A stretch of 64,000 nt of DNA from an uncultured Clostridium sp. Lineage in GTDB: Bacteria; Bacillota; Clostridia; TANB77; CAG-508. Below, one piece after another: positions 11,961 to 12,060 of this stretch (its first letter is position 1; each line of letters starts with the position of its first letter). The stretch covers positions 24,658 through 88,657 of the forward strand of contig CANDRW010000001.1 in NCBI GenBank assembly GCA_947388675.1, in the 5' to 3' direction. The translations under genes were made by a program, and so were the position numbers. Below the pieces are notes generated by a model. It saw only the letters and a program-made list of their open reading frames with translations. It did not search any database and was not told where the DNA came from.

Positions 11961-12060
11961 CAAGGTGTGTCCCCAAAACTGACACTTTTGTCACTTTAGG
12001 GACGTAGGTTAAACTGACACTTTTGTCAGTTTTAAAGAACGTCCCCAAACTGCCATTATT
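11961..12060. repeat. intergenic palindromic repeat, long form (copy A)
   Basis: CAAGGTGTGTCCCCAAAACTGACACTTTTGTCACTTTAGGGACGTAGGTTAAACTGACACTTTTGTCAGTTTTAAAGAACGTCCCCAAACTGCCATTA. About 95% identical to copy D at 51280-51379. Fills the whole spacer from the stop of the upstream gene to the polA RBS. Confidence 0.85.

Follow-up and report, generated by a model that had tools for sequence, protein, structure and literature searches.

Palindromic repeats between stop codons and ribosome-binding sites of uncultured gut Clostridia as probable REP-like elements of a RAYT-type transposase

A 64,000-nucleotide (nt) stretch of the genome of an uncultured Clostridium sp. (contig CANDRW010000001.1, positions 24,658 to 88,657), hereafter called the window, carries four clusters of a palindromic repeat in the spacers between co-directional genes. 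In five related lineages units of the same family flank, in inverted orientation, a gene encoding a Y1/HUH transposase. The repeats are probably repetitive extragenic palindromic (REP) or REPIN-like elements, non-autonomous and belonging to a domesticated HUH/Y1 REP-associated tyrosine transposase (RAYT) of the TIRYT form, in uncultured gut Clostridia of low GC content.

The window clusters, at 11959-12058, 51278-51377, 16420-16468 and 13495-13545, between them contain a 31-nt unit, TGTC-N-ACGTCCC-N-GACA, six times, with its orientation alternating. A covariance model of this unit, named R1, detected six units in the window and no more, each of them in one of the four clusters, and the 15-nt motif TGTCAGTTTGGGGAC gave eight matches at three mismatches or fewer where 0.66 were expected, a number that 0 of 100 shuffled sequences reached. 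A palindromic repeat family of four copies, as proposed in the initial annotation of the window, is thereby confirmed. The two long copies, taken there to be about 100 bp long and about 95% identical, are 97% identical over 100 nt, and the perfect 20-bp palindrome described there lies at 12012-12031 and recurs in long copy 2 with its arms at 51331-51338 and 51343-51350. Two details had to be corrected, since the short copies measure 49 and 51 nt rather than about 57 bp and the end of long copy 1, given as TGACATTA, reads TGCCATTA. Rfam 15 gave no match in the whole window at gathering thresholds, and in E-value mode long copy 1 (11940-12070; this mode was not applied to the other three copies) gave only chance-level microRNA matches.

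Comparison of the copies defines the 31-nt unit, for example TGTCAGTTAAACTAACGTCCCCAAACTGACA, as the building block. TGTC, ACGTCCC and GACA are invariant, the unit ends pair as a stem of 5-9 bp (12-15 bp when a copy is read as a dimer) and a loop of 13-15 nt holds ACGTCCC. Full inverted dimers of 66 nt were found at the loci L021, L022, L025, L037 and L026 of other genomes (loci and assemblies are designated by L numbers throughout). The short window copies are truncated inverted dimers of 49-51 nt, made of a half-unit (TGTCAGTTTGGGGAC), 3 nt and a full unit, and the form of about 100 nt is a dimer-plus-half in the order inverted unit, AAAG, unit, AAAG, half-unit and ACACCTTGAA. Long copy 1 follows this order in sense direction from the TAA stop codon to the tail ACACCTTGAA.

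RNA folding, suggested as a check in the initial annotation, predicts for every copy a strong hairpin that starts 0-1 nt (within 2 nt) after the stop codon, with energies of -19 to -41 kcal/mol, z-scores of -3.3 to -4.9 and an unpaired ribosome-binding site (RBS). The terminal stem changes on both sides between subfamilies (CAGTT/AACTG, CGCAC/GTGCG, CAC/GTG, C/G), and the stem changes of the 13495-13545 copy relative to the other copies are compensatory. Altogether 88.9% of the cells are paired and four of eight pairs change on both sides, values that were matched in 0 of 500 shuffles. The covariation supports the predicted unit hairpin and falls short of proving it, the subfamilies sharing kinship.

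The flanked transposase gene encodes about 260 amino acids (aa), contains the motifs HNHxHL and YIHFNP and was found in the lineages L025, L039/L041, L044/45, L046/47 and L048/49, none of them inside the window itself. In L025 a 1.4-kb segment between inverted units contains an open reading frame (ORF) at 3919-4731 of 270 aa with HNHIHLL and YIHFNP motifs, and the right-hand unit encodes the C-terminus of the protein. This protein matched Pfam Y1_Tnp at an E-value of 2e-13, above the Pfam cut-off, and its best NCBIfam match was REP_Tyr_transpos, the model of REP-associated tyrosine transposases, with 70 bits against a cut-off of 80 and with 24.5 bits for IS200. Across the RAYT-like proteins REP_Tyr_transpos scored 47-70 bits versus about 20 for IS200. 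No DDE transposase was found between the inverted units, the enclosed gene being that of the Y1/HUH enzyme.

The homologues of L039 and L041 are 67% identical and have inverted units on both sides, and the proteins of L044/45 and L046/47, 65% and 47% identical to that of L039, are flanked alike. In L046/47 the units have changed to TGTCC...ACGTCCCC...GGACA. The unit ends thus co-vary with the transposase lineage, as TGTCAG/CTGACA, TGTCAC/GTGACA, TGTCGCAC/GTGCGACA or TGTCC/GGACA. The L039 protein ends in a helix-turn-helix (HTH) domain, HTH_23, at residues 219-256 (25.1 bits against a cut-off of 24.6), in agreement with the precomputed PF13384 annotation of protein P0001. The gene order around the RAYT gene is conserved, either GH15>RAYT>radA or S4>RAYT>dnaE, as expected of a vertically inherited, single-copy RAYT.

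Samples that hold the genes of the window also hold a RAYT-like version of 194 aa (L048) with intact HUH and Y motifs. At L048:3540-3592 the C-terminal HTH region has given way to an element of the TGTCGCAC subfamily, whose sequence codes for the final 14 residues and contains the stop codon, and an inverted cluster lies about 500-600 nt upstream of the gene. The subfamily that flanks the RAYT gene in the samples holding the organism of the window is that of the 13495-13545 copy.

A hairpin-pattern scan of one genome per species found 25 loci in about nine metagenome-assembled genomes (MAGs), labelled uncultured Clostridia, Clostridium or Lachnospiraceae and derived from mouse, human and rumen samples; the same scan of viral contigs gave no match. 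Genomes with the family include GCA_022797215.1, MGBC162590, MGBC164179, MGBC166183 and GCA_948600675.1. In 217 kb of family loci, chosen for carrying a copy, R1 detected 49 units, 11 of them identical. The proteins of the window were found only in metagenome assemblies, the closest genome being MAG ABMPRH_45_2_1 at about 97% identity, with MGBC166183 at about 85-88%. Seven independent metagenome assemblies carry a sequence identical to long copy 2, and an orthologue of the 16420-16468 copy was found in L036. Long copies at non-orthologous loci of different species are 94-99% identical, orthologous DNA being 85-92% identical, a contrast that suggests either a recent spread of the copies or their homogenisation, or else a strong constraint on the unit.

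Filled and empty sites, a comparison of related genomes for which was suggested in the initial annotation, were found in L018 and L029. The empty site of L018 reads ...TTATAG followed by AAAGGAAAAATATG (TAG followed by AAAGGA), and the orthologous site of L029 is longer by 33 nt (TTTGTCAGGTTGGGAACGTCCCCAACCTGACAG) with no target duplication in this one case. L023 and L034 differ by one unit, and in L027 an element stands in place of the 81-nt spacer of L042, the upstream ORF ending at a TAG inside the element. Among the queH orthologues examined (83-93% identity) there was no clean empty allele of a window site; ruvB synteny was kept only in L057, and L056 has an extra ORF and no element. A metagenome scan with the guanylate-kinase-like protein returned two distant loci (52-57% identity) with no elements and a different context.

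Three further observations concern loci related to these. A third subfamily, TGTCCG...CGGACA, occurs in MAG MGBC166183, where a 75-nt inverted dimer (L026:2756-2830) fills a convergent junction with both stop codons 4 nt away, and a single unit (L020:3300-3330) holds the TAG that terminates the upstream ORF. At L057:1330-1430, next to a QueH 86% identical to that of the window, the ruvB>queH junction holds a related but distinct element, GGGGACGGTTCTTAGTCACC...GGGTGAC...GGGGACGAACTTAAAAGTCACC, within which the ruvB ORF ends. The 97%-identical ABMPRH_45_2_1 (L036) lacks positions 14924-15847 of the window (about 0.9 kb with a His_Phos_1 gene and a YhcG_C fragment), and this indel sits between two element-bearing junctions.

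All four window clusters lie in co-directional junctions, with the stop codon 0-1 nt upstream and the next start codon 10-20 nt downstream. The surrounding genes are all on the minus strand, in DNA of about 29-30% GC with strongly negative GC skew, and read in the sense direction TAA abuts TGTCA or TGGCA in three of the four junctions. The Pfam matches confirm the gene pairs named in the initial annotation (APH-family kinase>polA, PGA_cap>guanylate-kinase-like, ruvB>queH and polC C-terminal half>DUF1294). The copies and their parts are as follows.

11959 to 12058, minus strand: long copy 1, between the stop codon of the APH-family kinase gene and the RBS of polA; fold of -39.7 kcal/mol, z -4.4
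12024 to 12055, plus strand: unit of 31/32 nt, TGTCAGTTTTAAAGAACGTCCCCAAACTGCCA, opposite to the gene direction; R1 32.9 bits, E 4.5e-5
11989 to 12019, minus strand: 31-nt unit, TGTCAGTTTAACCTACGTCCCTAAAGTGACA, in sense orientation; R1 41.9 bits
11969 to 11984, minus strand: half-unit TGTCAGTTTTGGGGAC, the RBS-proximal end of long copy 1
12012 to 12031, no strand assigned: perfect 20-bp palindrome AACTGACA-CTTT-TGTCAGTT, joining the two inverted units, read from the sequence
51278 to 51377, minus strand: long copy 2, between the stop codon of the polC C-terminal half and the DUF1294 RBS; fold of -41.1 kcal/mol, z -4.9
51343 to 51374, plus strand, and 51308 to 51338, minus strand: units of long copy 2, R1 46.5 and 42.7 bits; half-unit at 51288 to 51303
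16420 to 16468, minus strand: short copy of 49 nt between the ruvB stop codon and the queH RBS, its full unit being the part nearer the stop codon
16438 to 16468, plus strand: unit of this copy, R1 45.9 bits; half-unit at 16420 to 16434; fold of the copy -21.9 kcal/mol, z -3.9
13495 to 13545, minus strand: short copy of 51 nt of the TGTCGCAC subfamily, between the PGA_cap stop codon (+1 nt) and the guanylate-kinase-like RBS
13495 to 13526, minus strand: unit of this copy, R1 37.1 bits; half-unit at 13530 to 13545

The genes on either side of the copies, all on the minus strand, are these.

12056 to 12691, minus strand: APH-family phosphotransferase gene (Pfam PF01636), its TAA stop codon (12056-12058) abutting long copy 1 at a distance d1, defined below, of 0
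9216 to 11948, minus strand: polA (Pfam DNA_pol_A), with a GGAGG RBS directly after the repeat end and the ATG 10 nt after the repeat
51375 to 53489, minus strand: C-terminal ORF of polC, its TAA stop codon abutting long copy 2
50970 to 51257, minus strand: DUF1294 gene (Pfam), downstream of long copy 2
16469 to 17473, minus strand: ruvB (Pfam), its TAA stop codon abutting the short copy
15831 to 16400, minus strand: queH (Pfam), start codon 19 nt past the short copy
13547 to 14812, minus strand: PGA_cap gene (Pfam), its TAA stop codon (13547-13549) 1 nt before the short copy
12910 to 13476, minus strand: guanylate-kinase-like gene (Pfam), start codon 18 nt past the short copy

The position across the family was scored as d1, the distance in nt at which the element begins after the final base of the upstream stop codon (negative when the stop codon is inside the element), on 32 junction sides with a nearby upstream ORF end, most known orthologous sites being counted once. 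The element abuts the stop codon (d1 = 0) on 14 of the 32 sides; d1 is 1-2 on 5, 3-25 on 6 and negative on 7, and the median distance from the element end to the next start codon is 19 nt. According to the initial annotation the element supplies the TAA stop codon of the upstream gene. The abutting stop codons are however TAA in seven cases, TAG in six and TGA in one, a usage not different from background (TAG 6/14 versus 23%, p = 0.075), and the stop codon therefore belongs to the gene and not to the element.

With the elements removed, the four window junctions retain 10-20 nt between stop and start codon, a length close to the 9-31 nt found where tight junctions of the window have no element; the comparison is qualitative only, as the automatic choice of start codons was crude. 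Insertion right after the stop codon is the only point that keeps both the ORF and the geometry from the Shine-Dalgarno sequence (SD) to the ATG, and purifying selection can thus yield the exact fill. The orientation in which the full unit adjoins the RBS is the commoner, about 12 to 3, with transcription and replication direction confounded.

Under the REP-like reading, the transposase would recognise the folded single-stranded unit, by analogy with IS200/IS605 and the Escherichia coli TnpA-REP, and such recognition would account for the spread and homogeneity of the copies. Copies would then persist almost only between a stop codon and the next SD, in part as counted above, or between a leader terminator and the SD. 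In compact operons the stop-to-SD point would be the only place that spares the ORF as well as the SD-to-start spacing, and the self-closing hairpin would make the element tolerable in a polycistronic mRNA.

Several points weigh against this reading. All RAYT-like proteins score below the 80-bit NCBIfam equivalog cut-off, and a PDB sequence search with a RAYT-like protein gave no significant match. The canonical unpaired 5' GTAG tag of REPs is not conserved among the copies, the tetranucleotide that follows GGGGAC being GTAG, GTTA, GTAC, GTAT or GTTC. The RAYT is tied to the organism of the window through shared samples alone, and the 194-aa version found in those samples, lacking the HTH, may have been disabled by its own repeat. 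The clean empty/filled pairs number one (L018/L029), and movement of the units by the transposase is presumed from analogy with the related systems. Finally, purifying selection does not explain why long intergenic regions are avoided, and the preference for tight junctions over long intergenic DNA may reflect target choice and not selection.

The same positional data could be read in terms of RNA. Hairpins may be selected by the host as intercistronic elements that adjust the expression of operons, whether by making the upstream mRNA more stable, by marking processing sites, by stalling ribosomes at termination or by linking termination to re-initiation, with their repeat character secondary or the elements co-opted; this explanation is possible, although we consider it unlikely. 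It fits a stop codon that abuts the element, lies at most 2 nt away or falls inside it on 26 of the 32 junction sides, with the start codon at its median of 19 nt, and it fits the strong folds (z -3.3 to -4.9) with an unpaired RBS and the prevailing orientation, about 12 to 3, of the full unit next to the RBS. Scans for terminators and promoters gave signals at or below chance and no terminator at the elements, which are therefore probably read through, and their transcription inside operons is plausible. [quoted passage not shown] Against selection for RNA on the sense strand, the stem mismatches comprise 11 G.U versus 7 A.C and show no sense-strand bias. Equivalent positions are taken by elements of both orientations and of at least five architectures, close relatives have the same junction without the element and otherwise unchanged, the L018 copy has two uncompensated changes in its inner hairpin, and the flanking genes have no common function. 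The regular position is also explicable by where insertion is tolerated.

A second explanation places the rule in the enzyme itself, in that a single-strand Y1 transposase would insert 3' of T-R-R (TAA, TAG or TGA) on the lagging-strand template, the stop codons being its target and not just what selection has spared. Transposases of IS200/IS605 use the 3' side of a fixed tetra- or pentanucleotide for insertion and make no duplication, and T-R-R targeting would follow that pattern. Exact abutment on 14 of 32 sides, with all three stop codons fitting T-R-R, agrees with it, and so do the one filled site free of duplication, the orientation bias, which suits a strand-specific mechanism, and a TAG in L031 that is not a stop codon and abuts a unit 4 nt past the true stop. 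However, the copies with no nearby ORF end (L021, L023/L034, L028, L039b/L041b) have no TAA or TAG directly adjacent, and the abutting stop codons are used at background frequency. At 30% GC the motif is moreover so common that selection would still be needed, and the sample is small. T-R-R targeting is on the whole unlikely, though a live alternative.

It is likewise rather improbable that the transposase targets stop signals, as T-R-R followed by an SD-rich tract, or that the hairpins have been co-opted as a 'stop-to-RBS adaptor'. If an adaptor of this kind existed, it would set relative expression, mRNA stability or coupling of cistrons across many operons of the clade. With either targeting or an adaptor, the family would be the first REPIN-type population demonstrated for an HTH-bearing (subclass 2.1/group 1-like) RAYT in Firmicutes, and one with a defined positional rule.

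Inverted repeats with invariant, symmetric TGTC/GACA and ACGTCCC and an associated protein with an HTH domain could also suggest operators, at which a dimeric DNA-binding protein would regulate the downstream genes. The sites follow stop codons inside co-directional arrays and not promoters, promoter-like matches being at chance, the neighbouring genes are functionally unrelated, units differ freely in number and orientation, and the presence of sites changes from one close relative to the next, all of which makes this very unlikely.

That the elements are miniature inverted-repeat transposable elements (MITEs) of a DDE-type insertion sequence, or intrinsic terminators, is hardly credible: the ends do resemble terminal inverted repeats and the hairpins are strong, but the single empty/filled pair has no target-site duplication, the inverted units enclose the Y1/HUH enzyme instead of a DDE transposase, and a Rho-independent terminator is contradicted by the null terminator scan and by a 3' flank that is an A-rich RBS with no U-tract. 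Of the MITE or PATE with a preference for sites after stop codons that the initial annotation offered as an option, the part that stands is a REP-like, IS200/IS605-related non-autonomous element with post-stop preference, and the part that does not is the MITE-type target duplication, absent in the one case.

The REP-like reading can be set against known systems. With the REP/REPIN-RAYT systems (REPtrons) of Enterobacteria and Pseudomonas the family shares short, extragenic palindromic units, inverted dimers forming long hairpins, a Y1/HUH gene that is inherited vertically in single copy and has inverted units on both sides, co-variation of unit and transposase, copies near gene 3' ends in co-directional or convergent junctions, and near-identical 'master' copies. 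REPtron palindromes are imperfect and 20-40 nt long, compared with the 31-nt unit and its 5-9 bp stem here, and inverted pairing of the REPIN or BIME kind is represented by the 66-nt and truncated dimers. The GTAG tag is conserved in REPtrons and not in this family, which also differs in its loop of 13-15 nt with the invariant ACGTCCC, in its Clostridia host and in a transposase that is longer than the REPtron RAYT, has a C-terminal HTH and scores under the NCBIfam cut-off. Co-directional REPs lie close against the 3' end of the upstream ORF, to which they sometimes contribute the stop codon (Di Nocera et al. 2013, PMC3733652); their distance from the downstream ORF varies, whereas the elements of the present family end flush with the next RBS.

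The closer match is the TIRYT or TIRtron. Di Nocera et al. described RAYTs flanked either by GTAG REPs or by longer inverted repeats with GGGGWSAS (TIRYT/TIRtron), with families occurring as dimers (PMC3733652), and Quentin et al. 2018 equated TIRYT with TnpA-REP subclass 2.1, long proteins with HTH_23, HTH_28 or DnaA_C tails (PMC6006769). Subclass 2.1 with its HTH corresponds to the RAYT group 1 of Bertels et al. (PMC6006769, PMC5581495). Shared with this type are the Y1 transposase with a C-terminal HTH (HTH_23/HTH_28/Bac_DnaA_C), longer inverted repeats, moderately abundant repeat families in dimers or clusters, and a group known in Clostridia. As to the G-rich motif, many copies read GGGGACAC or GGGGACAG, among them the window ends at 11967-11974 and 51286-51293 and the short forms whose full unit adjoins the RBS, but full units beside the transposase read GGGGACGT, outside GGGGWSAS. 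No REP-like sequences were reported beside subclass 2.1 genes (PMC6006769), and for group 1 in Clostridia Bertels et al. 2017 found only low 16-mer repeat abundance (PMC5581495); the present family differs in having a clear dispersed repeat population with several subfamilies. Membership in subclass 2.1 is suggested here by domain architecture and not by phylogeny.

The CGTC-tagged REPs of Di Nocera et al. 2013 carry CGTC unpaired at the end, a stem of 8-9 bp whose first pairs are A-T, a loop of 4-5 nt and a CCA tail, and have no associated transposase, and identity with them was rejected, as CGTC is here embedded in ACGTCCC, the stems differ and a transposase is associated. PATEs, Correia, RUP and BOX elements resemble this family in being small, non-autonomous repeats of intergenic DNA that form hairpins and are often co-transcribed with genes. 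PATEs derive from IS200/IS605 and have retained the subterminal hairpins of the complete element with its TnpA/TnpB, Correia and RUP count as MITEs of the DDE type and show target duplications, and BOX is modular with no known transposase; none of them has the RAYT-flanked architecture of this family. The mycobacterial interspersed repetitive units (MIRUs) of Mycobacterium are 40-100 bp long and occupy intercistronic spacers of operons, tightly bounded by stop and start signals. They are tandem direct repeats with small ORFs that overlap the stop and start codons on either side, lack palindromes and are not known to have an associated transposase. The position of MIRUs is like that of the present family, which differs in its palindromic units and its associated transposase.

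To our knowledge, REP/REPIN-RAYT systems have been studied almost entirely in Proteobacteria. The family is a clear case from abundant uncultured gut bacteria: its repeats are cognate, several of its subfamilies co-evolve, and species differ through gains and losses. Published surveys include no Firmicutes REP families (Di Nocera et al., PMC3733652) and no REP-like repeats beside the HTH-bearing RAYT subclass that occurs in Clostridia (PMC6006769, PMC5581495). The strict stop-to-RBS placement offers a natural test of insertion targeting or selection and of the influence of hairpins on operon expression. The repeats probably break metagenome assemblies, and they can mislead gene callers, as ORFs end inside them and one copy replaced the C-terminus of a RAYT.

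Other features of the window stand apart from the repeat family. The spacer between frr and uppS (60569-60744) is 176 nt long, GC-rich and structured, with 60590-60735 folding at -44.2 kcal/mol (z -3.3). It had been suggested to be a diverged relative of the repeats, a suggestion that was not borne out, as short-word BLAST gave only chance matches of 14 nt or less and R1 gave no match at E up to 10. The spacer had no Rfam match, and nothing similar was present in any fetched locus. Another intergenic repeat, not related to the family, measures about 73-110 nt and has copies of 85% identity at 9133-9205 (minus strand) and 46169-46241 (plus strand), with one copy between polA and the next gene; it forms a long hairpin, ACAAATTCTAAATGAC...GTCATTAAGAATTTGT, and has a shared tail, AATTTCCTAGARTATAGAAA. 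Rfam, searched permissively over 9060-9230 and so for the 9133-9205 copy only (46169-46241 was not searched in this way), gave nothing but a chance-level match outside the repeat.

The polC gene upstream of long copy 2 reads as two ORFs on the minus strand, 53491 to 55827 (778 aa) and 51375 to 53489 (704 aa). From about 53534 the conserved PolC motif lies in the second frame, in which a TAG occupies 53537-53535, and there is an apparent +1 shift near 53532-53535 (GCT A TTC). The split also occurs in the independent assembly L001 (778 + 701 aa) and could be a real frameshift, a split gene or recoding. At 49586-50089, inside a 778-aa ORF (48418 to 50754), lies a 186-nt direct repeat, 81% identical with a spacing of 318 nt, which is probably an internal protein repeat.

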